Origin: Deltaproteobacteria bacterium
GTDB taxonomy: Bacteria; Desulfobacterota; BSN033; UBA1163
Assembly (NCBI GenBank): GCA_020059605.1
Contig: JAGVBT010000049.1
Location: forward strand, 45,120-109,119
DNA length: 64,000 nt
Direction of reading: 5' to 3'
The position numbers and the translations under genes were made by a program. The notes under the pieces were generated by a model that saw only the letters and a program-made list of their open reading frames with translations, was not told where the DNA came from and made no database searches. Shown in pieces: positions 10,279 through 28,946 of this stretch (within the stretch, counting starts at the first letter, position 1; each line of letters begins with the position of its first letter).

Positions 10279-11325
10279 ATGAAATTCAAAACCATCGAAT
10301 GGAAAGGCGACCGCGTGAGGATCCTCGACCAGAGGAGACTCCCTGGCTTGGTCCGGCATATTGACTGCAACACCGCTTCCTCCGTAGCAAAAGCGATCCG
10401 GGAAATGGCCATCCGGGGCGCGCCTGCAATCGGAGTGGCAGCGGCCATGGGAATTGCACTGGCAGGACAAAAGATTCGGACGGATCGCCCGGCTCTGTTT
10501 TTAAAGGAGGTAGACAAGGTCTGCCGCCAGATGGGACAGACCAGACCCACCGCCGTCAACCTTTTCTGGGCCATCCGGCGGATGCGGAGCGTATTGGGCA
10601 GGTCTGCCCAGGGTATTAAAGAATTGAGAGCAGAATTAATAAAAGAGGCCCTCGCCATCTACCGGGAGGACATAGAAGTAAACCGAAGCATTGGGGAGAA
10701 AGGTCAGAATCTCATCAAGGACGGAGCAGGCATCCTTACCCACTGCAATGCGGGAGCCTTGGCCACCGCAGGATACGGGACGGCGCTTGGCGTGATGTAT
10801 GCGGCGAGAGACCAGGGAAAGCGATTCCATGTCTTTGTGGATGAGACCCGGCCACTGCTTCAGGGTTGCCGGCTGACGGCCTGGGAGCTGGTCCAGGAGA
10901 AGATTCCGGCGACGGTAATTACGGACAATATGGCCGGAGTTTTGATGGCCAGTGGAAAGATCGATCTTGTCATCGTCGGAGCGGACAGGATCGCCCGAAA
11001 CGGCGATACGGCCAATAAGATCGGAACTTACGGTCTTGCCGTTCTCTCGAAATGGCACGGCATTCCATTGTATGTGGCTGCGCCCATCTCGACGATTGAT
11101 TTCGGTCTCGATTCCGGAACCGAAATTCCCATTGAAGAGAGGGGAGGGGATGAGGTCACCCATATTGGCGGCAAACGAATCGCTCCAACAGGGATTAAGG
11201 TATTTAATCCCGCTTTTGATGTCACCCCCCATTCACTGATAGCGGGGATCATTACCGAGAAGGGGATTATTCGGCCCCCCTTCAATAAGAGCATAATACG
11301 GGACGTTGGTTCTAAAGCAACTTAA
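10279..11325 (+). CDS. mtnA: S-methyl-5-thioribose-1-phosphate isomerase (eIF-2B alpha/beta/delta family)
   Basis: MKFKTIEWKGDRVRILDQRRLP N-terminus and a GADRIARNGDTANKIGTY core, typical of MtnA. Confidence 0.85.
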   Translation: MKFKTIEWKGDRVRILDQRRLPGLVRHIDCNTASSVAKAIREMAIRGAPAIGVAAAMGIALAGQKIRTDRPALFLKEVDKVCRQMGQTRPTAVNLFWAIRRMRSVLGRSAQGIKELRAELIKEALAIYREDIEVNRSIGEKGQNLIKDGAGILTHCNAGALATAGYGTALGVMYAARDQGKRFHVFVDETRPLLQGCRLTAWELVQEKIPATVITDNMAGVLMASGKIDLVIVGADRIARNGDTANKIGTYGLAVLSKWHGIPLYVAAPISTIDFGLDSGTEIPIEERGGDEVTHIGGKRIAPTGIKVFNPAFDVTPHSLIAGIITEKGIIRPPFNKSIIRDVGSKAT

Positions 11326-17430: not shown

Positions 17431-18159
17431 ATGAATCCTTCACAGGAGATTTCAATCTTCATCGCATTTACTGCAGGGATTCTCTCTTTTGTCTCGCCCT
17501 GTGTACTCCCCCTTGTTCCCTCCTATATCACCTATATCACAGGAGTTTCTTTCAAAGAGTTCACCGACGCCAACATAAGGCCCCGAATCAGGTGGGCCAC
17601 AATGCTGCATTCCACTCTTTTTATCTCGGGGTTTTCAACGGTCTTTATCCTGATGGGCGCATCGGCCTCTTATCTGGGACAGGTATTGATCGAATATCAA
17701 TCCTGGATTATGAAGGGAGGGGGGGTGCTCATTATCATCCTGGGAATTCATTTCACCGGGATCATCAACCTCCCATTCTTGCAGATGGAGAAACGCTTTG
17801 AATTGAGAAAGAAACCCCTGGGCTATCTGGGGTCTTTTCTCGTGGGGGTCGTCTTTGCAGCCGGGTGGACCCCCTGTATCGGTCCCATCCTTTCGACGAT
17901 CCTCATCTATGCCAGCACATCAAAAGATTCCACGACCGGCGTCTATCTGTTAACGGTCTACTCCATGGGACTTGGAATTCCCTTCTTTCTTTCCTCCCTG
18001 GCCTTGAGCACTTTTCTTTCAGCCTTCGAAAGAATAAAGCGGCATATGAGGTGGATTACTTTGATCAGCGGGATTTTTTTGATCCTGATCGGGATCCTCT
18101 TTTTGACCGATACCTTCCGCGAAGTCAACGCCTTTTTCAACCGGCTCGCCAATCCCTGA
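17431..18159 (+). CDS. ccdA: cytochrome c biogenesis thiol-disulfide transporter CcdA (DsbD-family transmembrane core)
   Basis: Paired Cys in TM1 (FVSPCVLPLVPSYI) and a later TPCIGP. Six TM helices. 242 aa. Confidence 0.8.
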   Translation: MNPSQEISIFIAFTAGILSFVSPCVLPLVPSYITYITGVSFKEFTDANIRPRIRWATMLHSTLFISGFSTVFILMGASASYLGQVLIEYQSWIMKGGGVLIIILGIHFTGIINLPFLQMEKRFELRKKPLGYLGSFLVGVVFAAGWTPCIGPILSTILIYASTSKDSTTGVYLLTVYSMGLGIPFFLSSLALSTFLSAFERIKRHMRWITLISGIFLILIGILFLTDTFREVNAFFNRLANP

Positions 18160-18173
18160 AAAAATCGAAGAGC

Positions 18174-18205
18174 ATCGTTAAACTAACGCTTTTTATTGCG
18201 CTTGG
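18174..18205 (+). terminator. weak stem-loop plus T-run after ccdA
   Basis: CGTTAaacTAACG followed by CTTTTTATT. The stem is short and AT-rich. Confidence 0.25.
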
Positions 18206-18385
18206 AAGATGAGCGGCGGAAATTAATTTATGACTGATGTTACGTGGAAGAAATATTCCTTTTGACGAGGGAATAAAAAGGAATTCATTTGGGACTTTTA
18301 AGAAAATCCTTTCCGCTTTTTATTTGATTGATCATCATAAAAAACCGCGGGAGGTTTACTTGAATTGTCTCTAACCAATAAGCCG

Positions 18386-18414
18386 TTTACGTCAATTTAT
18401 ATTAACGGTATAAT
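18386..18414 (+). promoter_or_regulatory. candidate sigma70-type promoter (TTTACG-N17-TATAAT) in the 606-bp leader of the cytochrome operon
   Basis: Perfect -10 hexamer TATAAT at 18409-18414 with a 4/6 -35 at 17-nt spacing. A second weaker candidate is TTGACA at 18603. Confidence 0.25.
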
Positions 18415-18765
18415 GGACACAATTTGGTATTAATTTTGCTAATAAATATAAAGATAGGTCCTTAACGAGGGTATACTTCGACGGGCCCGGCACGAAGGGC
18501 CGCAAAATTCAGTTTCGATATCCATAGAATTGCAGACTTTAGTAAATTAATAAAGAATGGGAGGAAGGGTTGAGAGGATTTTGATTTTTTTTCTTTTTTT
18601 TGTTGACATTTATATAGTTTATTTTAAGATAGGCATGAATTCAAGCCAGGACCGCTGGAGTTTTTTGAGTCATAAAAACGAAATCGTAACCTATTTGGGC
18701 AAAAAAGATTAAGGTCTTGTCATTCCCGTGTCGACCGGGGAAAATTAAAAACAGGGGGGAATAAA

Positions 18766-19407
18766 ATGAAAGGTGTAAAACTGTTATGGATTGGATTTGT
18801 TTTTTTTCTGGCCACAGGCCTCATGGTTTCATCCCACCTCAACGGAGTATATGCGGGGTCTATTGTCGGCACAAAACACGATTTAAGCATAAGATCATGG
18901 GGAGCAGGGAGTGGTTCAAATCAAATTTGTATTTTCTGCCATACGCCTCATAATGCCAGGACTGATTTACCCGAAGTGCCCCTGTGGAATCATGGCACAA
19001 CCACAACGAATTTTAATCTCTACACAAGCCCCACACTTGATGCAACAGTAGGTCAACCAAACGGTGCGTCAAAAGCCTGTCTTTCCTGCCATGACGGAAC
19101 CGTTGGATTGGATGTTTTTGGGGAAAAAGCTTCCAGCCCGCATACGATCGGAGCAGGACGGTTTAATTTGGGGACAGACCTTTCAAACGACCATCCCATT
19201 TCTTTTACGTATGATGCCGCCCTGGCCGCCAAAGACAAAGGTTTATATGCACCAGTGGGAGCGGATAAGGTTGTAGAGGGTATTCCCCTCTATTACGGCA
19301 AAATGGAGTGTTCTTCCTGCCACAGCGTTCATGATAATACCAATCAACCTTTCCTTCGCCATACAAATGTTGGGAGCGCACTCTGCTTGAAGTGCCATAT
19401 AAAATAG
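18766..19407 (+). CDS. tetraheme c-type cytochrome (secreted)
   Basis: Signal peptide, then 4 CxxCH motifs (CIFCH, CLSCH, CSSCH, CLKCH) plus 8 further His. Homologous to the N-terminal ~190 aa of the 566-aa cytochrome at 24426. Confidence 0.8.
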   Translation: MKGVKLLWIGFVFFLATGLMVSSHLNGVYAGSIVGTKHDLSIRSWGAGSGSNQICIFCHTPHNARTDLPEVPLWNHGTTTTNFNLYTSPTLDATVGQPNGASKACLSCHDGTVGLDVFGEKASSPHTIGAGRFNLGTDLSNDHPISFTYDAALAAKDKGLYAPVGADKVVEGIPLYYGKMECSSCHSVHDNTNQPFLRHTNVGSALCLKCHIK

Positions 19408-19547
19408 GCTGCGGCAATCTGAATTATAGAGAATTCCCTTCAAACCGGTTCGACGATTTATTCAAATTCTTGGGTGCTTCAAATCCCCCCTCGCCTCTTG
19501 TCACAAGAGAGGGGAGGGGGGATTATTCATTTCGTATCATTTAACAT

Positions 19548-20702
19548 ATGCCATGCTTTTCCCTTAAGAAGCTTGCCGAAAGAATGCCGATGAGCCGATT
19601 TTTTAGGGAATTTCTGTCGGTTCTATTTTTGCTGACTGCATTCTGGGGGTGTGCGACCGCTCCGCATAAACAGGATGTCCGGCCGGCGGTTTTTTATCCT
19701 CCGTTGCCCAACCCGCCCCGTATCCAATACCTGTCAAGCTTCTCGTCGGCAAGAGATGTCAGTGCGCCTCAAAGCAAGCTGGCCGAATTCATCGTGGGGA
19801 AAGACCCTAAGGAAGAGTACGCCCTTAAGAAGCCTTATGGCCTTTCCATATTCGACGGGAAGATTTACGTGGTGGATACCCAGGGGCCCGGTTATGCCGT
19901 GTTTGACCTGAAGAATAAGCTGTTGAAAGGAGTTCCGGGGGCCGGGGCGGGGAGGATGAGGAAACCCATCAATCTCACCATTGACAGGGACGGGACCAAG
20001 TATGTTACGGACACCGGATTGAACCAGGTCCTTGCTTTCGATAAAGACGACAATTTTCTTCGGGCCTACGGGGTAAAGGACCAATTCAAACCCGGGGACG
20101 CAGCCGTATCAGGGGACCGCCTCTATGTCTCCGACCTGAAGAATCATGAAATCCAGGTCCTTGACAAGGTCTCGGGAACACTGCTTTTCAAATTCGCAAA
20201 AGCCGGGGCTAAGGAAGGAGAGCTCTATTATCCGACGAATATGGCGGTCGGGCCGAACGGCCACCTCTATGTTTCAGAAACGGGAAATTTCAGGGTCCAG
20301 AAGTTTACTCTTGAAGGAAAGCCTGTCCGGACATACGGCCAGGTTGGGAACAGGCCAGGGCAGTTTTCAAGGCCCAGGGGCATTGCATTGGACCGCCAGG
20401 GTAACATCTATATTGTGGATGCGGCCTTTGAAAATATCCAGATCATCGACCAGGAAGGCAGGGTCCTTCTCTTTTTCGGCCAGCCCGGGAACAACCGGGA
20501 GGATATCAATCTCCCCGCAGGCATTGTGATTGACTATGAAAATGTCCCTCTCTTTCAGCAATACGCCGATTCGAAGTTCAAACTGGAGTATCTCATCCTG
20601 GTAGCCAGCCAGTTCGGTGTGAGCAAGGTGAATGTGTTTGGGTTCGGAAGGATGGAAGGGATGGATTACACCGTTCCGGGACCGGTTCGCCAGAAGAAAT
20701 AA
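19548..20702 (+). CDS. NHL-repeat (six-bladed beta-propeller) lipoprotein
   Basis: Signal with Cys (LTAFWGC). Repeated NHL-type blades (YYPTNMAVGPNGHLYVSETGNFRVQKF, PRGIALDRQGNIYIVDAAFENIQII). Paralog of 23349-24425. Confidence 0.7.
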   Translation: MPCFSLKKLAERMPMSRFFREFLSVLFLLTAFWGCATAPHKQDVRPAVFYPPLPNPPRIQYLSSFSSARDVSAPQSKLAEFIVGKDPKEEYALKKPYGLSIFDGKIYVVDTQGPGYAVFDLKNKLLKGVPGAGAGRMRKPINLTIDRDGTKYVTDTGLNQVLAFDKDDNFLRAYGVKDQFKPGDAAVSGDRLYVSDLKNHEIQVLDKVSGTLLFKFAKAGAKEGELYYPTNMAVGPNGHLYVSETGNFRVQKFTLEGKPVRTYGQVGNRPGQFSRPRGIALDRQGNIYIVDAAFENIQIIDQEGRVLLFFGQPGNNREDINLPAGIVIDYENVPLFQQYADSKFKLEYLILVASQFGVSKVNVFGFGRMEGMDYTVPGPVRQKK

Positions 20703-20734
20703 CCATCCTTGATCCCCGGGTAGCGCCAACTCCA

Positions 20735-21313
20735 ATGGGTCTCAGGATTAGAAAACGTCCATTTGCCGCCCTTTTCCTCTTTTTCGCTGTCCTCTTCACT
20801 TTGGCAGGTTGTGATCCGGAGACCCGGTACCGGGCGCTCAATTTTTTCTTTGACGGAGTCCCCCGGCCAGACGAACCGCCGAAGAAAGAGGAGATCCCTG
20901 CGGCCAAAATCGCCACCGTAAAACAGGAGGCTCAAGCGGAGACACCTTCAGAAATAGTTTATTACAGGCACCCGCCCGCAGAGGGAAAAGACGATTGTTC
21001 CTTCTGCCACGGGCCTGTCAGCCAAATTGTGATTCCTCCCAAGGACATGTGCCTGAAATGCCATGAACACCTGAAGGAAAACCGTCCCTTTCTCCATGGC
21101 CCGGCTGTCGTGGATTGCGTTTTTTGCCACAATGTCCACCGGAGCCAGACGAAAACCCTGCTGAGAAAAACCGGTAACCCCCTCTGTTTTGAATGCCATG
21201 ATCAACAGAGCGTGATTCAGGGAGAATCACATCGGGAGCTGAAGGAAGAGGAATTCGTTTGCCTTTCCTGCCATGACCCCCACGGCGGGAAAGACCGATT
21301 TTTCCTGCGATAA
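20735..21313 (+). CDS. pentaheme c-type cytochrome lipoprotein
   Basis: Canonical lipobox LAGC, then 5 CxxCH (CSFCH, CLKCH, CVFCH, CFECH, CLSCH) in 192 aa. Confidence 0.75.
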   Translation: MGLRIRKRPFAALFLFFAVLFTLAGCDPETRYRALNFFFDGVPRPDEPPKKEEIPAAKIATVKQEAQAETPSEIVYYRHPPAEGKDDCSFCHGPVSQIVIPPKDMCLKCHEHLKENRPFLHGPAVVDCVFCHNVHRSQTKTLLRKTGNPLCFECHDQQSVIQGESHRELKEEEFVCLSCHDPHGGKDRFFLR

Positions 21314-21321
21314 GAAAGAAT

Positions 21322-23313
21322 ATGTTCGTCCTAAACAGGGTGGAGATGCCCAGAAATTCCGACCTTATATTCATCTGCCTGACGATCCTGGTGGTTTCCG
21401 CCCTATTTGCGGGCGATTGCGCGGAAGCCCAGCGGGTCTACGGACGCGAAGAAGAGGAAATCCGTCTTTTTACGCTTCGGGAATTGGGCGGGGCGCTGGA
21501 GTTCAGGTTTGAGTATGAAGACGACCGGGAAGAGGGGGGAGGGAGGCCTTTTGAGAGAAAGGAGACCCGGTTCGAGGAGCTGTTACAGCTTAAGACCCGG
21601 GGGTCTCTTTATCACCCGAACCTTCTGGATTTCCGGATTGATACCACCTTTGGATTAAGGCAGCAAGTGTTCAGCGGAGACCTGGATGACCGCAAGCAAA
21701 CCTTTCCGTATGAATATCATGTCCATCTCAATTTTTTACGGGAGAAGCCTTACGGGTTCAACCTCTTTGCCCTTCGGTCCTCCAACCCGGTCGGGAGAAC
21801 CTTTTTTGAAACGATCGACATCGAGTCCGATTCCTACGGAGGGGCTTTCCGGTACCAAAATAAACTTTTCCCCATGACGCTGCTTCTTTTGAACCAGAGC
21901 ACAAAGGAGGATTCCCGGGATTATAAAAGAGACCGGAACGAACGGACCGCCGATTTCAGGGTTTCCAATAAGCTGAAGGATATCCTGGAGAGCGATTTCA
22001 AATATGTCTTGAAAGACCTCGTCGAGGAGATCCCGTTCAAACAGGAGATCACCACTCACGATATCAGCCTCAACAGCAGGCTGAGTTATGGCAAAATACG
22101 GGGGTTTTCCAACCTCTCCTACCTGAAGACATCGGGGGGTTTTAAAACGGATCAGCTGCGGATCATTGAAAATTTTCATGTCGATCATTCGAAGTCATTG
22201 ACCACCCTCTATCAGTATTATTTCTCCCATTTTGCGACTGAAGATTTCAGGTCCAATTTGAACCAGGGAAACATCGGGTTTCGGCACGCCCTTTACGAGA
22301 GCCTCGTCACCGAAGTCAGGGGGGAAGTCAGCCTGACGGATGCCACCGAGTTCGAGGAGCTCTATTACGGTTCCAATCTATCTCTTTCCTATCGAAAAAA
22401 AATCCCGGGCGGAGTCCTCTCTGCTGGATATCATTTTCTTTACAGAAGAACCGACCGGGAGGCGGAGGAAGGTGTCGTCAAGATCTTTGGAGAGCGGATC
22501 GTCCTCTCCGACAGTCAACGAACCTTTCTTGCTAACCCCAATGTGATTCGCGATTCGGTCATCGTCCGGGATTCGTTCGGCATCCTGTTGACGTTAAATG
22601 TCGATTACCGGCTCATCGTAAGCGGGAACCTGACCGAAATTCAACGTGTGGGCCTCCCGGACAACACCCCTGTCCTGGTCGATTATGAATTTTTATCTCC
22701 ACGGTCTCTCAAGTTTGATACCCTCAGCCATGGAGTGAACTTGCGTTACGACCTCGGGAGATTAATTTCATTGTACTACAATTATCTCAATGCCAGGCAA
22801 AAGGAGATTTCCGTCCGGCGCCGGGCAGAGTCCACCGCGGCCCTGTATGATACGGAGAGGAGTCTCTACGGGGCAGAATTGAAATGGCGCTGGTTTCAAA
22901 TTGCAGGCGAATACGAGGACGACAACTCCGAACTGATTCCCTTCACAGCTTACAGGGTGCGCGGCTATTTCAGCATCTCTCCCATCGAGCACACCTCCCT
23001 CAGCCTGAGCGCCATCCGCAGCCGGACCATGTATGAAAGGGACAGGAGAACAATGGTCACGAACCGGGCGGATGGACTCTTCCGTCTTCGCATCAATTCC
23101 TCTCTTGAAGCGTTGCTCGGGGCGGGATATTTAAGGGAGAAGGGAAGGGATATTGACACCCGGGCATGGAAATGGAAAGGTGATTTAATAGGAAAATTCC
23201 GCTCCATCGAATTGAGGCTCCAGTCGGAGTATCTGAAGAGGCGCGAGATCGCCCAGGACCGGGATGAAATCATCGTAAAACTAAAATTGATCCGGCACTT
23301 CCATATTCGCTAA
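21322..23313 (+). CDS. putative outer-membrane beta-barrel protein (porin-like partner of the cytochromes)
   Basis: Signal peptide. 663 aa, rich in Tyr/Arg/Ser/Asn with long runs of alternating hydrophobic residues typical of amphipathic beta-strands. No cysteine-rich or enzymatic motif. The start lies 8 bp after the pentaheme cytochrome stop. The C-terminus (HFHIR) is not a classical aromatic OMP terminus. Confidence 0.4.
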   Translation: MFVLNRVEMPRNSDLIFICLTILVVSALFAGDCAEAQRVYGREEEEIRLFTLRELGGALEFRFEYEDDREEGGGRPFERKETRFEELLQLKTRGSLYHPNLLDFRIDTTFGLRQQVFSGDLDDRKQTFPYEYHVHLNFLREKPYGFNLFALRSSNPVGRTFFETIDIESDSYGGAFRYQNKLFPMTLLLLNQSTKEDSRDYKRDRNERTADFRVSNKLKDILESDFKYVLKDLVEEIPFKQEITTHDISLNSRLSYGKIRGFSNLSYLKTSGGFKTDQLRIIENFHVDHSKSLTTLYQYYFSHFATEDFRSNLNQGNIGFRHALYESLVTEVRGEVSLTDATEFEELYYGSNLSLSYRKKIPGGVLSAGYHFLYRRTDREAEEGVVKIFGERIVLSDSQRTFLANPNVIRDSVIVRDSFGILLTLNVDYRLIVSGNLTEIQRVGLPDNTPVLVDYEFLSPRSLKFDTLSHGVNLRYDLGRLISLYYNYLNARQKEISVRRRAESTAALYDTERSLYGAELKWRWFQIAGEYEDDNSELIPFTAYRVRGYFSISPIEHTSLSLSAIRSRTMYERDRRTMVTNRADGLFRLRINSSLEALLGAGYLREKGRDIDTRAWKWKGDLIGKFRSIELRLQSEYLKRREIAQDRDEIIVKLKLIRHFHIR

Positions 23314-23348
23314 GAACGGGATAGAATTTTTTAAAATAAGGAGAAAAA

Positions 23349-24425
23349 ATGGTGCCTCCCCACCGGTTCTTTCCGGGCCGATTCGGTCGGTTCCCTGTCC
23401 TGTTTTCCTTGCTGCTCCTGGCATGGACGCTGGCCTTGAATGCGGGATGCGGAAAACCGTCTCCTCCCCCGGCCGGGGTTTCCACCCCATCTCTTGTGTG
23501 GCCGCTTCCCCCTGAAAAACCTCGGATCCAGTATCTCTATTCCATCGCGGTTCCCGAAGATATCGGCATCTCCGCCTCGGTTTATGAAAAGGTCGTGGGG
23601 CTTTTGGCGGGGAAGAAGCCGTCGCGGCAGATGGTGAGACCCTACGGAATCCATTTAAGCGGGGGCGGGATACTCTCTGTCACCGACCCTGGGATGGGAA
23701 CCGTGCATCAGTTCGATATGAGGAATTTGAGATACCATCAGATCAAGAGGTTTGGGCGAAAGAACCTCGTTTCACCGATCGGAGTGACCATGGATGAATC
23801 AGGGCTCCTTTATGTGTCCGACTCCATATTAAGAAAGATCTTTGTATTCGGTCAAAAGGGGGAGCCCGTGAGGGAACTCGGAGGTGAGGATCGGTTCATC
23901 CGGCCGACAGGAATGGCCTTTCATCCATCGTTGAATAGACTCTATGTCGCGGACACCCTGGGACAGTCCATTCAGGCCTTCGATCTCGGCGGGAATCTCC
24001 TCTTCGGTTTTGGAGGAAGGGGAAACAACGAGGGAGAGTTTAACTTTCCCACTTCTCTATCGATCGATCGGAACGGAAATTTATATGTGAACGATTCATT
24101 AAATTATCGAATTCAAATCTTCAAACCCGACGGGAAGTTCCTTGCCATGTTCGGAAGGCACGGGGATGGGATGGGTGAATTTTCAAACCCGAAGGGAGTT
24201 GCCCTCGATACGGAAGGGCATATCTACGTGGCGGACGCTCTTTTCGATTCGGTTCAAATCTTCAGTCCGAAAGGGGAGCTTCTCCTTTTTTTTGGCGAGG
24301 CCGGGAGGAAGGCGGGAGAATTCTGGATGCCTGCTTCCCTCTTCATCGATCCTACCAATCGGATTTTTGTCGCCGATTCCTACAATCAGAGAATTCAGGT
24401 GTTTCAATTTCTCGGGGGGCATTAG
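23349..24425 (+). CDS. NHL-repeat (beta-propeller) lipoprotein, paralog of 19548-20702
   Basis: Signal with Cys (LALNAGCGK). NHL blades (GEFNFPTSLSIDRNGNLYVNDSLNYRIQIF, GEFSNPKGVALDTEGHIYVADALFDSVQIF). Shares the N-terminal P-x-P-R-I-Q-Y-L motif with the first NHL protein. Confidence 0.7.
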   Translation: MVPPHRFFPGRFGRFPVLFSLLLLAWTLALNAGCGKPSPPPAGVSTPSLVWPLPPEKPRIQYLYSIAVPEDIGISASVYEKVVGLLAGKKPSRQMVRPYGIHLSGGGILSVTDPGMGTVHQFDMRNLRYHQIKRFGRKNLVSPIGVTMDESGLLYVSDSILRKIFVFGQKGEPVRELGGEDRFIRPTGMAFHPSLNRLYVADTLGQSIQAFDLGGNLLFGFGGRGNNEGEFNFPTSLSIDRNGNLYVNDSLNYRIQIFKPDGKFLAMFGRHGDGMGEFSNPKGVALDTEGHIYVADALFDSVQIFSPKGELLLFFGEAGRKAGEFWMPASLFIDPTNRIFVADSYNQRIQVFQFLGGH

Positions 24426-26126
24426 ATGATAAGACGAAGAACGACCGGAACGCTGATCCTCTTCCTGCTCCTTCTTTTTCATAGCCGTGCGGAGGGAAGA
24501 AGCATTATTTTCACAAAGCATAACCTGTCCGTCTCCGGCCCCGGGCCTGTCAAGGCAACGGTTGAGAGACCTGTCTGCCAATTCTGCCATACCCCTCATC
24601 ATGCGGGACAGGCCAAGCCGCTGTGGAACAAGGATATCCCCGAGATTCTTTATACCACTTACCGGAGTTCGTCGCTCAAAGCGGGTCCCGGGCAACCGAA
24701 CGGGGCCTCCAAGCTTTGTCTCTCGTGCCATGACGGAACCATTGCCCTGGGGTTGCTTCGAAGCGAAAGCCAGATTCTCCCCTTTGCGGGGGGCGTGTTG
24801 ACCATGCCCCCCGGAAGAACAAACTTGGGCCTTGATCTCTCCGACGACCACCCGATTTCATTTCCGTATGACAGCGCCCTGGCGTTCCGGAACGGCCAGT
24901 TGGAGGATCCGGCAAATTTGAGAAGGCCGGTGAAATTGGATTCCTATGGCCAGCTCCAGTGCACGAGCTGCCATAATCCTCATGACGACCATTTTGGGAA
25001 ATTCCTGGTGATGGAGAATCGTTATTCGGCCCTCTGTATCACCTGCCACAAGAAGACAGGGTGGATGATTACCTCGCATCGAAGCTCGTGCCGGACCTGG
25101 AACGGGGGACCTCCGAATCCATGGCCCCATACTTCCTATGCGACCGTTTCCGAAAACGGATGCGAAAATTGCCATCGTCCCCATGCAGCCGGAGGAAGAG
25201 AGAGGCTGCTGAATTACGATGTGGAAGAGGAAAATTGTTATCCCTGCCATAATGGAAACGTGGCCTCCAGGAATCTGAAGAACGAATTCATGAAGCCCTA
25301 TCGCCACCCCGTGGAGGGCAGCAAGGGAATCCATTTTCCGGACGAAGATCCCCTCTGGGCGACTCGCCACGTGGAATGCGCCGATTGCCATAATCCCCAT
25401 TCCGCCAACGCCGCTACTGCAAACCCGCCGATGGCCTCGGGGAGGATATCAAATGTCGCGGGGATTTCTTCTTCCGGGACGGTCGTTTTTCCCCTTACTT
25501 ACGAGTATGAATTATGTTACCGTTGCCACGCGGACAACCCTGGGACAAAGCCCCTTCTTGTGACCCGTTATCTCTTCGAGCCCAATCTTCGATACAGATT
25601 CAAACCCTCCAATGCCTCTTATCATCCGGTTGAGGCGGTCGGGAAAAATGCGGACTGCCCAAGCCTTCTCATTCCTTACACCACCTCCAGCCTCATTTAC
25701 TGCACCGATTGTCACAACAACGATTCGGGTCAAAAGGCAGGAGGGGTCGGGCCCAGCGGACCCCACGGATCGATCTGGAGGCCCCTTTTGGAAAGGCAGA
25801 TGGTTACAGCGGATTACACGATCGAAAGCGCCCAGGCCTACGCTCTTTGTTACAAATGTCATGACCGGAATTCGATCCTGTCCGGTCAAAGTTTTACAAA
25901 ACACCGGAAACATATCGTGGATGAGAGGACTCCCTGCACCGCCTGTCATGACCCCCACGGGGTGGCGACGAATCCGCACCTCATTAACTTTGATAAAATG
26001 ATTGTTTTTCCCAATGATCAGGGGATCCTTCAGTTTGAGGACCGGGGGCGGTCTGCGGGGGCCTGCTCTTTGAGATGTCATGGAATCAACCACAAGGGGA
26101 GGAATTATCAGCGGGATATCCCGTAG
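24426..26126 (+). CDS. multiheme c-type cytochrome (11 CxxCH plus one CxxxCH)
   Basis: Signal peptide, 11 canonical CxxCH and a C-terminal CSLRCH (CX3CH). The N-terminal 190 aa are homologous to the tetraheme cytochrome at 18766. The start codon abuts the stop of the NHL gene (TAGATG). Confidence 0.8.
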   Translation: MIRRRTTGTLILFLLLLFHSRAEGRSIIFTKHNLSVSGPGPVKATVERPVCQFCHTPHHAGQAKPLWNKDIPEILYTTYRSSSLKAGPGQPNGASKLCLSCHDGTIALGLLRSESQILPFAGGVLTMPPGRTNLGLDLSDDHPISFPYDSALAFRNGQLEDPANLRRPVKLDSYGQLQCTSCHNPHDDHFGKFLVMENRYSALCITCHKKTGWMITSHRSSCRTWNGGPPNPWPHTSYATVSENGCENCHRPHAAGGRERLLNYDVEEENCYPCHNGNVASRNLKNEFMKPYRHPVEGSKGIHFPDEDPLWATRHVECADCHNPHSANAATANPPMASGRISNVAGISSSGTVVFPLTYEYELCYRCHADNPGTKPLLVTRYLFEPNLRYRFKPSNASYHPVEAVGKNADCPSLLIPYTTSSLIYCTDCHNNDSGQKAGGVGPSGPHGSIWRPLLERQMVTADYTIESAQAYALCYKCHDRNSILSGQSFTKHRKHIVDERTPCTACHDPHGVATNPHLINFDKMIVFPNDQGILQFEDRGRSAGACSLRCHGINHKGRNYQRDIP

Positions 26127-26189
26127 TCTGGCCGGTGCGAAAGGAGATCCCGGGGAGAAGATATCCTTTTGGGAACGGCCCAAAGGCAA

Positions 26190-27179
26190 TCAATCGGTCT
26201 TAAAAAAGGATTGAAGCGCCTTTTTATATTCCAATAAAGCGCGTTCTTTCTGTCCTTCCTTTTCATAGAGCCTTCCGAGATGGTAATGGACCTCGGGAGT
26301 CTCGTGCCGGTCTTGCAGCAGATCTTCCAGCCTTTTGATGGCTTTTGTATTCTCCCCCATCAATTCCAAAGAGAGCGCGATCCCGACGGACCCCTGTCTT
26401 AAATTGGGATTCAGGCCGATTCCCCTCTCAAAGAATTCAATGGCCTCTTTTGGGTTCTTCTCTTTGAGATGGATCATCCCCAGCCCTACGTATGCATCGG
26501 CATGGCCGGGATCCAGCTGGATGGCTTTCAACCATTCTTCCCTGGCCCTCTCTTGAGAACCTTTTTCAAAAAGATTCTTCCCGAGATTGAAATGGGCCTG
26601 GGCCTTCTTTTTGTTTTCCGGTTGGGGATCGCCCCTGGGTTGACGCTCTTTTTCCCATTCCTCGGCTGTTTTCTTCCCCATGGCCACCAGGACTTCTCCT
26701 TCCACGATCTCGTCAAGCGAGTGGGTGTAAGGAAAGGCCTTGAGAAGCCTCCTTTCCTCATCCAGGATGCCTGCAGTCGGAATCACATGAACTCCATAGG
26801 CGCCGTACACTTCCCTTTTATCATCAAGGAGCATAGGATGGGACCAGTCATGGGCGCGCCTTAACTTTTTGACCTTCTCTTTGGCATCGGGATCCGAAAT
26901 AATGGAGATCAAATAAAGGCCATCACCCTTGAGCCGGCGGTAAAGGCCCTCCAGCCGATTCATAACGCTCAAAGACCTTTTCTCCTTGACAGGGGTGTCG
27001 ATGCCCCAGAAAAGAAGCACCACCTTGCCCCCCTTGATCGATGGGAGGACAATGTCGTTGCCGTCAAGGTCCTTCAATTGAATCTCGGGGGCTTTCTCCC
27101 CGATCTCGAGGTTGCGAAACGCAGAGACACCCGTAGGAGAAAGCATTCCGGCAAGAATAACTGGGAAGAGGAGAGACAT
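26190..27179 (-). CDS. periplasmic thioredoxin-fold (TlpA/AhpC-like, lacking CxxC) + TPR-repeat protein
   Basis: Signal peptide. N-terminal Trx-like fold with FWGIDTP in place of the WCxxC active site. C-terminal TPR repeats (AHFNLGKNLFEKG ... AYVGLGMIHLKEKNPKEA ...). Confidence 0.55.
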   Translation of the reverse strand: MSLLFPVILAGMLSPTGVSAFRNLEIGEKAPEIQLKDLDGNDIVLPSIKGGKVVLLFWGIDTPVKEKRSLSVMNRLEGLYRRLKGDGLYLISIISDPDAKEKVKKLRRAHDWSHPMLLDDKREVYGAYGVHVIPTAGILDEERRLLKAFPYTHSLDEIVEGEVLVAMGKKTAEEWEKERQPRGDPQPENKKKAQAHFNLGKNLFEKGSQERAREEWLKAIQLDPGHADAYVGLGMIHLKEKNPKEAIEFFERGIGLNPNLRQGSVGIALSLELMGENTKAIKRLEDLLQDRHETPEVHYHLGRLYEKEGQKERALLEYKKALQSFFKTD

Positions 27180-27266
27180 GAATCTGGGGAATCCGATTTT
27201 CTTATTGATAAGATATCTCCTCTATCGCCGGCCTCGGAAAGTCGATGGGTAAAGAGAAAAACCCTA

Positions 27267-28946
27267 TCAGTATTTTACCGGTTTTGCCCGGTCATAGGTG
27301 AAGGGTTTGTGGCAACCGACCACGCAGGTGCCTCCCGTGGGGGTCTTCGTAAAATGAATGGGATAGCTCCACATCTTTCCGTAAGGCACTTCTTTCCTGA
27401 TGTGTTTCGGCTGGTTCCCGGCATGGACTTCGTGGCATGCCTTGCAGCTTCTTCCTTTTCTTTCCTTATTCACATGGACAAAATGAAGATTGCGGTCTCC
27501 GTTTCGAAAGCTCGTCAGCTCCAGCGTCTTGGGGTGGAGGGCGATATCCTTGTTGTGGCAGTCGAAACAGATGGCATAGTTCTCCGTCTTGTAGGAGATA
27601 TAAAATTCGACCGGGAAATAGTTTTTTAAGATCCTCGGAAAAAGCGATCCATGGGTTTGATGGCAGGCGGCGCAGTCATTCTGCTCCACAGGACCATGAA
27701 AATATTTGCTTGTTCTGGTTTTTTCTCCCAGGTCCTGATGGCAGGTAAAACAAATTTCCTTGAGCGGAGCCTTCAGTAGTTTTTCAAAATCGGTGAAATG
27801 AACGCCGTGGCACGCCGAACACTCCCCTTTTTGAACTGGCTGGTGAGGGAACTTGGCCTGGGCAATGGATTGGGTGGTTTTCGGATGGATGGTTTGATGG
27901 CACTCAATGCACAGTTGATTCTGCACTTTTCGCAGCAAGGCCTTCTGTGAGGAGGCGTGAGGATCATGGCATTCCTGGCAATTCTCTTTGATGATGGGGT
28001 GGACGTATTTTTTATTTAAACCTTTCTCGATGTCTTGATGGCAGGAGTAGCAGAGCTTTTCCGAAGGCAGGGTCAATAATTTCTTATTGGGCGAAGCGTG
28101 CGCATGGTGGCAGGCAATGCAATCCCCGCCTTTGAGCGGTTCATGGAGGTTGGCCTGCTTAACGAGCTTAGCGTCATGGCAATTAAAGCAGAATTCCTGT
28201 CGGGAGGAGCTTTTCAATTGGTAGCGGAGAGGAGATTGATGTGGGTCATGGCAATCGCTGCACCCGCCTTCTGATACGGGTGCATGGACCGACTTCCCCT
28301 TAAATTCTTCCGCTTCCGTTTCATGGCAGATGTAGCAACCTTCCGCCCCCGGCCTGGTCATCATGTTTTTGAAAGGCGTGCCATGGGGATTGTGGCAGGC
28401 GATGCATGTTCCCGAACCAACCGGCCCATGGACAAAATTTGCCTTTCCCATCTGGGAGTGGCACTGGGGGGAGACGCAGGTCGCGCTGGGAATCATTTTC
28501 TTATAAGAGAAAGGTTCTCCCTTTAAGGCATGACAATCCTGGCATTGGTCTTCTCTCTCTATCGGGAAATGGATGGTATAAGGCCGGAAGCCTTCAGGAG
28601 GCCTGGCATCCTCTGTTGAAAAGTGGATCGAGAGCGGTTGTGTCATCCTGCCGGCCTGGTCCTGAACCGATATTTCATTCAGTCCCTTCTTGAGGCGAAT
28701 TGCAACGGTGAAGGCCCCCTTGAGGACAGGAACGGTTGTTGTTCCCAGGACCTCCCCTCCCTTCACCTGGCACGTAACATTCTTGACGGATGGATCCGTG
28801 GCCACCCCGATGATCCTGATTCTCTCCCATTTAACGACGCTGCGGTCGGCAGGATAAACGATACGAAACCCTTCTTTTGCAGCCCCCGTGTGAATCGGCA
28901 GCAGAAGGCAACACATGCATATCCCAACCAGAATAACATTCCTCAT
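27267..28946 (-). CDS. large multiheme c-type cytochrome (14 CxxCH + CX4CH + CX3CH) with N-terminal Ig-like beta domain
   Basis: Signal peptide and ~110-aa beta-rich domain. This is followed by c3/c7-like repeat units (…HGPV..G.CxxCH.PH…) containing 14 canonical CxxCH plus CVSPQCH and CVVGCH. Confidence 0.8.
   Translation of the reverse strand: MRNVILVGICMCCLLLPIHTGAAKEGFRIVYPADRSVVKWERIRIIGVATDPSVKNVTCQVKGGEVLGTTTVPVLKGAFTVAIRLKKGLNEISVQDQAGRMTQPLSIHFSTEDARPPEGFRPYTIHFPIEREDQCQDCHALKGEPFSYKKMIPSATCVSPQCHSQMGKANFVHGPVGSGTCIACHNPHGTPFKNMMTRPGAEGCYICHETEAEEFKGKSVHAPVSEGGCSDCHDPHQSPLRYQLKSSSRQEFCFNCHDAKLVKQANLHEPLKGGDCIACHHAHASPNKKLLTLPSEKLCYSCHQDIEKGLNKKYVHPIIKENCQECHDPHASSQKALLRKVQNQLCIECHQTIHPKTTQSIAQAKFPHQPVQKGECSACHGVHFTDFEKLLKAPLKEICFTCHQDLGEKTRTSKYFHGPVEQNDCAACHQTHGSLFPRILKNYFPVEFYISYKTENYAICFDCHNKDIALHPKTLELTSFRNGDRNLHFVHVNKERKGRSCKACHEVHAGNQPKHIRKEVPYGKMWSYPIHFTKTPTGGTCVVGCHKPFTYDRAKPVKY

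Follow-up and report, generated by a model that had tools for sequence, protein, structure and literature searches.

What does a bacterium build from a cluster of multiheme cytochromes, NHL β-propellers and a giant β-barrel? The question is raised by contig JAGVBT010000049.1 (assembly GCA_020059605.1) from an uncultured member of the Desulfobacterota, whose closest named relative is a Syntrophaceae metagenome-assembled genome (MAG). Within the 64,000-nucleotide stretch analysed here (the window), the cluster occupies positions 18766–28946 and encodes cytochromes with 4, 5, 11 + 1 and 14 + 2 heme motifs. A preliminary description of this DNA suggested an undescribed electron-transfer conduit; open reading frame (ORF) listing and motif counts reproduce its gene inventory in full, coordinates included. 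We propose that the region encodes an extracellular cytochrome nanowire of the OmcE type together with its outer-membrane conduit, a reading to which we assign a probability of roughly 60%. OmcE builds conductive ‘cytochrome nanowires’ in Geobacter. The secretion and anchoring of such nanowires, and their electrical link to the cell, are an acknowledged open question (bioRxiv 10.1101/2025.10.22.684050). The locus reveals no new kind of system; it is a real, biologically coherent and widely conserved one.

An OmcE-like tetraheme cytochrome

The first gene of the cluster, cyt213 (18766–19407, + strand), encodes a secreted tetraheme cytochrome of 213 amino acids (aa) with a Sec-type signal peptide and four CxxCH motifs; its orthologs are 200–221 aa long and likewise carry four CxxCH. 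In phmmer searches of the PDB, cyt213 aligns at full length (residues 17–213) with 7tfs_A (E 1.5e-38) and along its whole length with 9yuq_N (E 2.9e-27). Entry 9YUQ shows the nanowire bundle formed by D. soudanensis OmcE, and the 7tfs sequence is 98% identical to the G. sulfurreducens protein encoded in the purHDE–resB–ccsB locus. BLASTP gives 41% identity between cyt213 and G. sulfurreducens OmcE (E 4e-45), and a hidden Markov model (HMM) of the OmcE family matches cyt213 with E 2.4e-53.

The OmcE family is defined by eight heme ligands, four in CxxCH motifs and four supplied by additional histidines (bioRxiv 10.1101/2025.10.22.684050). In our alignment the four CxxCH motifs and residues H38, H62, H143 and H189 are invariant in cyt213, its orthologs and the OmcE proteins of G. 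sulfurreducens and D. soudanensis. As expected of a family member, the protein is secreted, lies within the range of ~200–240 aa, contains exactly four CxxCH and has four further conserved histidines as distal heme ligands. Together these features show cyt213 to be an OmcE-family tetraheme subunit and make it a candidate building block of a nanowire. This identity escaped the preliminary description, as did the OmcE-like module with which its 11–12-heme cytochrome begins.

Some relatives encode additional OmcE-like proteins. Paralogs with five CxxCH motifs lie in tandem upstream of the four-heme gene in both Desulfarculales loci that we examined (L003:3648–6467 and L008:3037–6101), and a single such paralog occupies the same position in L005 (6085–6738). 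These paralogs match the five-heme OmcE-like variants that have been proposed as a possible new nanowire family (bioRxiv 10.1101/2025.10.22.684050).

A cassette conserved across phyla

Five further genes follow cyt213 on the + strand. They encode NHL384 (19548–20702), a six-bladed NHL β-propeller lipoprotein; cyt192 (20735–21313), a pentaheme lipoprotein; p663 (21322–23313), a predicted outer-membrane β-barrel; NHL358 (23349–24425), a second six-bladed NHL propeller lipoprotein; and cyt566 (24426–26126), a secreted 12-heme cytochrome. Two genes on the − strand, encoding a secreted thioredoxin-fold (Trx)/tetratricopeptide-repeat (TPR) protein (26190–27179) and the 16-heme cytochrome cyt559 (27267–28946), converge on this unit. 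From cyt213 to cyt566 the intergenic gaps are 140, 32, 8, 35 and 0 bp, the stop codon of NHL358 directly abutting the start of cyt566. The spacing of 0–35 bp given earlier is accurate for the last four gaps, but the first is 140 bp long and contains a hairpin. Signal peptides, which orthologs share, are found at the N-terminus of all cytochromes, of p663 and of both NHL proteins, and the lipobox cysteines of NHL384, cyt192 and NHL358 are retained in orthologs, in agreement with the earlier assignment of these products as secreted proteins and lipoproteins.

Related loci were sought with an alignment of 17 closer sequences, and eight genome loci (L001–L008) were examined. They include Syntrophaceae UBA2208, the Desulfarculales UBA702 and UBA696 and several Thermodesulfobacteriota MAGs. 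Syntrophaceae UBA2208 shares 72–80% identity with the window for every protein but the tetraheme (57%). The eight loci have an essentially common gene order of tetraheme, NHL protein, pentaheme lipoprotein, barrel, NHL protein and 11-heme cytochrome, which is rearranged in the two Desulfarculales loci. All six genes recur together in one MAG each of the Verrucomicrobiales and the Nitrospirae, and the cultured Azoarcus sp. DN11 (CP021731, 718596–740320) has a five-gene cassette without the pentaheme lipoprotein. In every locus that reaches far enough upstream (L001–L005, L007–L009, L013 and L014), the cyt566-type gene is accompanied by an OmcE-like gene. A cytochrome with 13–16 hemes and a Trx/TPR gene are usually found near the cassette.

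The synteny in Desulfobacterota, Verrucomicrobiales, Nitrospirae and, with five genes, Azoarcus identifies the six + strand genes as the core of the system; cyt559 and the Trx/TPR gene are a lineage-specific accessory pair. The gene arrangement is far beyond chance, and the close spacing together with the strict cross-phylum synteny argues that the products form one physical complex. Conservation of the cytochrome–NHL–barrel order in relatives, which the preliminary description named as a test of its reading, is seen in the eight loci as well as in Azoarcus, Verrucomicrobiales and Nitrospirae.

A 17-bp GC-rich hairpin with the character of a terminator or attenuator lies just 3′ of cyt213 (19482–19524, + strand); the fold of 19405–19550 has a predicted energy of −44.2 kcal/mol (z −2.56). 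Comparable terminator-like hairpins are present 3′ of the OmcE-like gene in L001 (7955–8010), L004 (5525–5585), L005 (7920–8040) and L013. G. sulfurreducens omcE (locus L011) is likewise followed by a hairpin, in this case a classic stem with a U-run (10715–10745). Because the hairpin separates cyt213 from the downstream genes and recurs in relatives, it supports a role of cyt213 as the major subunit. The layout resembles that of pilin operons, and the recurring hairpin suggests a terminator or attenuator setting an excess of subunit over machinery.

The 12-heme cytochrome as a candidate anchor

Cyt566 contains 11 CxxCH motifs and one CxxxCH (CSLRCH). Its N-terminal module (approximately residues 10–210) matches the OmcE HMM with E 1.3e-38, residues 10–210 match 7tfs_A with E 4.7e-26, and none of the eight OmcE heme ligands varies among 49 members of the cyt566 family. 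The protein is thus best described as an OmcE-like module fused to an eight-heme extension, an architecture known from sequence alone. An alternative composition of three tandem OmcE modules, each with four hemes, was rejected: residues 211–566 give only motif-level, collinear and insignificant matches to the OmcE HMM (3–6 bits). A model of MtrC/MtrF domains II/IV matches both cyt566 (54.6 bits) and cyt559 (52.3 bits) above its cutoff of 30, in each case only locally. The full-length relatives listed for cyt566 share 53–86% identity with it and belong to Verrucomicrobia, Nitrospirae, Kiritimatiellia, Lentisphaerae, Betaproteobacteria and others.

With its OmcE-like head on a larger cytochrome, cyt566 is a candidate for the protein that anchors the filament to the barrel or serves as an adapter between them. 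We conjecture, tentatively and with the odds against it, that cyt566-type cytochromes are cluster-encoded anchors of OmcE-like nanowires, acting as terminators or initiators. The head would mimic a subunit and close off the polymer at its proximal end, using the histidine–heme exchange that would also join the subunits, and the fused eight-heme tail would run through the 28-strand barrel, wiring the filament to the periplasm. Such a protein would be the conductive counterpart of the PapH-type terminator/anchor of chaperone–usher pili. A ‘stopper’ or tip protein has been sought, and none was encoded in the operons examined (bioRxiv 10.1101/2025.10.22.684050). An OmcE-like head on a 12-heme cytochrome that serves as filament anchor or stopper is possibly new; we found no description of one. 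If the conjecture is true, the cassette would be a self-contained machine for nanowire assembly and anchoring present in many phyla, syntrophs included. In any case cyt566 is a concrete, testable candidate for the filament-to-barrel adapter, and the cultured carrier Azoarcus sp. DN11 makes a test feasible.

A large outer-membrane barrel without a curated family

The 663-aa protein p663 has no match in Pfam or NCBIfam. An AlphaFold2 model based on 28 of the 36 relatives found is all-β, with ~28 long strands and mostly short connections, and reaches a mean predicted local distance difference test score (pLDDT) of 88.1 and a predicted template modelling score (pTM) of 0.76. The model resembles barrels of the MtrB, usher and LptD classes. 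p663 is accordingly a large outer-membrane barrel of ~28 strands, and the beta-barrel assignment that the preliminary description had based on composition is upheld by structure prediction. Its broader view of the locus as an outer-membrane electron-transfer cluster of cytochromes and a β-barrel is likewise supported.

A small extra β domain (approximately residues 385–460, window 22474–22701) is inserted between barrel strands in the model. No other part of the barrel family is conserved as well as this segment (GERIVLSD..RTFLANPNVI..VDYRLI..VLVDY), on which a cytochrome or a propeller may dock.

Among 1.84 billion cluster representatives searched with a profile, 3,342 belong to the barrel family at E<=1e-3; at E<=1e-30 the number is 1,763. 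Of the 150 members listed, almost all are full length, at ~650–690 aa. The family is large and has no model in the copies of Pfam and NCBIfam that were searched. For one member, P0026, a Pfam tag (PF27730.1) had been precomputed; our local copy of Pfam did not reproduce it, and a newer Pfam release may already contain a model of the family.

Propellers, heme rods and a cysteine-free thioredoxin fold

NHL384 and NHL358 are β-propeller lipoproteins, each with a lipobox cysteine and a Pfam NHL match (E 2.4e-22 and 8.7e-29, respectively). They are 34% identical to each other (E 7e-53), which confirms the paralogy noted earlier, and their orthologs in Azoarcus share 53% (NHL384) and 44% identity with them. 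NHL358 shares 35% identity with the NHL protein encoded in the omcE cluster of G. sulfurreducens (E 2e-56), and it matches NHL domains of the protein-interaction type in the PDB (such as those of TRIM71, Thin and Brat) with E 1e-63 to 1e-50.

Both lipoproteins contain the motif (Y/W)P(P/S)xPxxPRI(Q/E)(Y/W)L just past the lipobox (window 19680–19730 and 23490–23540), in NHL384 in the form YPPLPxPPRIQYL. The motif is also present in orthologs from other phyla and in the NHL protein of the Geobacter omcE cluster (L011:8338–9423), and may be a hallmark of NHL lipoproteins that go with cytochromes. Where NHL384 starts is ambiguous: its longest ORF begins at 19548 (384 aa), and the NCBI and Logan gene calls begin at 19584 (372 aa); the 372-aa form has the more typical signal peptide.

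The lipoprotein cyt192 and the larger cyt559 both look like MtrA-type heme rods. Cyt192 has five CxxCH motifs, a lipobox LAGC, a Paired_CXXCH_1 match (E 4e-19), a partial match to the DmsE family (E 5e-23) and 6r2q_A as its best PDB match (E 2e-11). Its orthologs are found in L001–L005, L007, L008, L013 and L014, and none is found in Azoarcus. The periplasmic cyt559 combines an N-terminal β-sandwich domain with 14 CxxCH motifs, one CxxxCH and one CxxxxCH, in total 16 hemes. It matches Paired_CXXCH_1 with E 1e-75 and scores 160 bits against the DmsE-family model TIGR03508 (cutoff 192), having 16 hemes and not 10. The best PDB match is again 6r2q_A (E 4.6e-14). This chain is labelled ‘Cystathionine beta-synthase’ in the PDB table, and the entry 6r2q is titled ‘Structure of the Mtr complex’; by its sequence the chain is presumably the MtrA cytochrome. 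Cyt559 is also 40% identical over 310 aa to the 370-aa nine-heme cytochrome of the G. sulfurreducens omcE cluster (E 8e-76).

In E. coli, an aspartate at position +2 of a lipoprotein signals retention in the inner membrane. Cyt192 has Asp at +2 after the lipidated cysteine (Cys26–Asp27, window 20810–20815), and among its orthologs the residue varies: Asp in L001, L002 and L005, Asn in L004, Glu in L003, and Gly or Ser in Verrucomicrobiales and Nitrospirae. This variation, together with the Asp in cyt192 itself, leaves the localisation of cyt192 uncertain.

The protein encoded beside cyt559 has the thioredoxin fold and TPR repeats reported earlier (Pfam AhpC-TSA E 9e-15, TPR_2 E 5e-22). One correction is needed: the protein contains no cysteine at all, and the CxxC site is lost. 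We accordingly rejected a role as a catalytic thioredoxin or thiol-disulfide oxidoreductase; the protein is probably a chaperone or scaffold rather than a redox enzyme. Its best NCBIfam match, far under cutoff, is the ‘ResA-like WAxxUGC’ selenoprotein family. The gene is paired with a cyt559 homolog of 13–16 hemes in L001, L002, L004 and L005.

The upstream region and maturation genes

The cluster was originally described as lying downstream of ccdA. A ccdA gene, encoding a DsbD-type transmembrane reductant carrier for cytochrome c maturation (Pfam DsbD_TM E 1e-18), is indeed present at 17431–18159 (+ strand), but it is 606 bp away from the cluster and a ccdA query has no match in the eight related loci (L001–L008). 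On that ground a functional link between ccdA and the cluster was rejected. The gene adjoins the cassette only in near-identical contigs (L015–L017), and is context rather than a conserved part of the cassette.

Other maturation genes accompany the cassette elsewhere: ccm genes in Nitrospirae (L014:14079–17725), resB and ccsB in Geobacter (L011:3911–6148) and, according to the literature, ccsAB in Tenderia. As the system is a different one in each lineage, the genes seem to have been recruited repeatedly and not inherited from a common ancestor.

The 606-bp leader or promoter region between ccdA and cyt213 (18160–18765, + strand) contains no convincing ORF. A riboswitch or other RNA element was considered for this leader and rejected; no Rfam family matches it, the sole match having E 0.55. 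Two promoter-like sites (18386–18414 and 18603–18630) found in a sigma-70 consensus scan are not enriched over shuffles. Nor did scans of the whole region for sigma-70 promoter and terminator consensus sequences give any enrichment over shuffled sequence; the strong hairpin after cyt213 escaped the terminator scan and came to light only when the RNA was folded.

A proposed mechanism and its alternatives

Most likely, the products of the locus form a complex in the outer membrane by which an OmcE-like filament is secreted, anchored and charged. In this model the cytochromes would leave the cytoplasm through Sec and receive their hemes in the periplasm. The two propeller lipoproteins would clamp the barrel, which would form an outer-membrane portal, and the OmcE-like subunits would pass through or assemble on it and polymerise by inter-subunit His–heme ligation, as documented for OmcS and OmcE (PMC9473688). 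The hairpin after cyt213 would lead to production of the subunit in excess over the machinery. Cyt566 would sit in the barrel, its OmcE-like head docked on the filament at the proximal end and its heme tail extending to the periplasm, where cyt192, cyt559 and soluble carriers would feed in or take out electrons. For the cell, this would provide long-range exchange of electrons with minerals, humics or partner cells.

Several observations weigh against this assignment. No filament has been observed for the cyt213 subfamily, and homology to OmcE is not in itself proof of polymerisation. Homology between p663 and the 752-aa barrel encoded in the omcE cluster of G. sulfurreducens could not be demonstrated: BLASTP finds nothing, hhalign gives a probability of 0.7%, and an HMM of 172 barrel sequences matches the Geobacter protein with only E 0.026 (8 bits). 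The AlphaFold2 model of cyt566, based on a 49-sequence alignment, is poor (pLDDT 61, pTM 0.44) and unfit for a fold search. Neither the cluster genes nor the other large ORFs of the window evidently encode an inner-membrane quinol oxidase or quinone reductase, the flanking ORFs not having been scanned against family libraries. The cytochrome in the barrel lumen, the side of the membrane on which the NHL lipoproteins sit (periplasm or cell surface) and the direction of electron flow are all proposals.

Direction is the subject of one alternative, which keeps the anatomy and reverses the current: the same hardware could serve mainly for electron uptake, in electrotrophy, Fe(II) oxidation or as the acceptor in direct interspecies electron transfer. 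Inward transfer has been proposed for the Uet cluster (Tenderiales, Gallionella) and for clusters of D. ferrophilus. Uet genes respond to cathode potential and the Uet cluster occurs in iron oxidisers; the NHL–cytochrome clusters of D. ferrophilus are induced under electron-donor starvation and tied to uptake (PMC5815863, PMC9769857); and the cassette occurs in non-metal-reducers such as Azoarcus. Here, however, the host is Syntrophaceae-like, and such organisms need electron sinks, not donors. In Geobacter, moreover, OmcE serves outward transfer (PMC10597711). Multiheme chains are reversible, so that direction is not decidable from sequence. We regard a mainly inward function as rather unlikely; a host resembling Syntrophaceae suggests that electrons flow outward, with minerals, humics or a syntrophic partner as recipient.

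It is less likely than a nanowire, but in our estimate still quite plausible, that the locus encodes a non-filamentous porin–cytochrome conduit of the Uet type. Cyt566, cyt559 or both would then thread the barrel as MtrA does MtrB; cyt213 would be a monomeric extracellular or periplasmic tetraheme, as proposed for UetA; the NHL propellers would only stabilise the complex; and there would be no nanowire. In composition the cluster does parallel Uet, which combines a tetraheme and an undecaheme with two NHL proteins and a 28-strand barrel; cyt559 and cyt192 resemble MtrA, and the barrel is of another lineage than in the proven nanowire cluster of Geobacter. Against a monomeric cyt213 stand its complete set of OmcE ligands and its full-length similarity to two solved filaments, and the layout of the subunit gene with its hairpin suggests a protein made in excess. 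The authors of the Uet study themselves raise polymerisation as a possibility (bioRxiv 10.1101/2022.05.06.490989).

A periplasmic or outer-membrane redox enzyme system, with catalytic or substrate-binding NHL propellers and cytochromes that merely shuttle electrons, is very improbable: some NHL or six-bladed propellers are enzymes, the propellers have weak Pfam matches to SGL, arylesterase and Vgb lyase and a PDB match to peptidylglycine amidating lyase (E 3e-9), and both are well conserved (53% and 44% identity between window and Azoarcus), but the best NHL matches are protein-interaction domains such as those of TRIM71, Thin and Brat (E 1e-63 to 1e-50), no cofactor or metal motif was identified in the propellers, a structural role fits proteins so strictly paired with an OmcE homolog and a giant barrel, and published interpretations all invoke scaffolding.

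We retain the nanowire and its conduit as the preferred reading. The presence of an OmcE-type cluster in a lineage resembling Syntrophaceae bears on direct interspecies electron transfer within methanogenic consortia. Its machinery is a compact six-gene cassette spread across Desulfobacterota, Nitrospirae and Verrucomicrobiales, with a five-gene form in Betaproteobacteria.

Comparison with known systems

The Mtr and porin–cytochrome (Pcc) conduits, such as Shewanella Mtr (6R2Q) and Geobacter OmaB–OmbB–OmcB and Ext, differ from the cassette in several respects. The window barrel falls in none of the curated porin families (MtrB/PioB, OmbB), and its ~28 predicted strands compare with 26 reported for MtrB. 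The cluster lacks a full-length surface decaheme of the MtrC/OmcA type; the Mtr and Pcc systems, in turn, lack the two NHL propellers and the OmcE-family subunit.

NHL proteins, which the preliminary description held to be part of no described conduit, are in fact encoded in the Uet, D. ferrophilus, Occ and omcE clusters. In D. ferrophilus IS5, multiheme cytochromes are co-encoded with NHL proteins in DFE_0448–0451 and DFE_0461–0465 (PMC5815863, PMC9769857), and the 19-gene Occ cluster of Ca. Dechloromonas occultata encodes NHL proteins along with a 922-aa undecaheme (bioRxiv 10.1101/695007). Compared by their descriptions, both systems share with the window multihemes that are co-encoded and co-expressed with NHL propellers, which are proposed to stabilise an outer-membrane cytochrome complex. 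Unlike in the window, no barrel is reported for the D. ferrophilus clusters. A Geoalkalibacter locus encodes an OmcE homolog and two NHL proteins.

By composition, and with descriptions compared, the cassette is closest to Uet. The Uet cluster of Ca. Tenderia electrophaga encodes the tetraheme UetA (ALP54622), a predicted 28-strand barrel (UetC, ALP54624), the NHL proteins UetH and UetI (ALP54629 and ALP54908) and the undecaheme UetJ (bioRxiv 10.1101/2022.05.06.490989), and has been reported in Gallionella and Leptothrix too. Like the window, it has a tetraheme, a barrel of ~28 strands, two NHL proteins, an undecaheme, a TPR protein and maturation genes nearby. The gene order differs, and neither a pentaheme lipoprotein nor a 16-heme partner is described for Uet. 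Conversely, the peptidyl-prolyl isomerase UetB, the c7 trihemes UetD, UetE and UetG and the cupredoxin UetF have no match, by Pfam and NCBIfam, among the nine window cluster proteins (17431–28946). The cassette of the betaproteobacterium Azoarcus sp. DN11 is orthologous to that of the window.

It is the omcE cluster that removes the locus from the class of undescribed systems. Minimal omcE clusters consist of two multiheme cytochromes, two β-propeller lipoproteins, OmcE and a large β-barrel, and five phyla have OmcE homologs that come with a barrel and a propeller lipoprotein (bioRxiv 10.1101/2025.10.22.684050). The window contains this gene set: cyt213 as the OmcE homolog, cyt192 and cyt566 (and also cyt559) as the cytochromes, NHL384 and NHL358 as the propellers, and p663 as the barrel. 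In the G. sulfurreducens locus (L011) we find purHDE, a PpcA-like triheme gene, resB, ccsB, two cytochrome genes, an NHL gene, the OmcE gene, the gene of the 752-aa protein and glycosyltransferase genes, exactly matching the published account of the omcE region (bioRxiv 10.1101/2025.10.22.684050). Its OmcE, NHL protein and nine-heme cytochrome have homologs in the window (E 4e-45 with cyt213, 2e-56 with NHL358 and 8e-76 with cyt559); none was detected for its barrel.

The omcE clusters of Desulfuromonadia (7TFS, 9YUQ) and the window thus have in common a homologous tetraheme with all eight ligands, the minimal gene set, a hairpin after the subunit gene, a homologous NHL lipoprotein and one homologous multiheme cytochrome, as well as maturation genes nearby (ccdA here; resB and ccsB there). 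Gene order differs, the block of glycosylation genes is absent here, and filaments are known only for the omcE cluster. Because p663 has no detectable relation to the Geobacter barrel, the cassette belongs to a different lineage from the one studied experimentally. It is best viewed as a sister lineage of the Geobacter cluster, and it includes a cyt566-type protein, of which the Geobacter cluster has no full-length counterpart.

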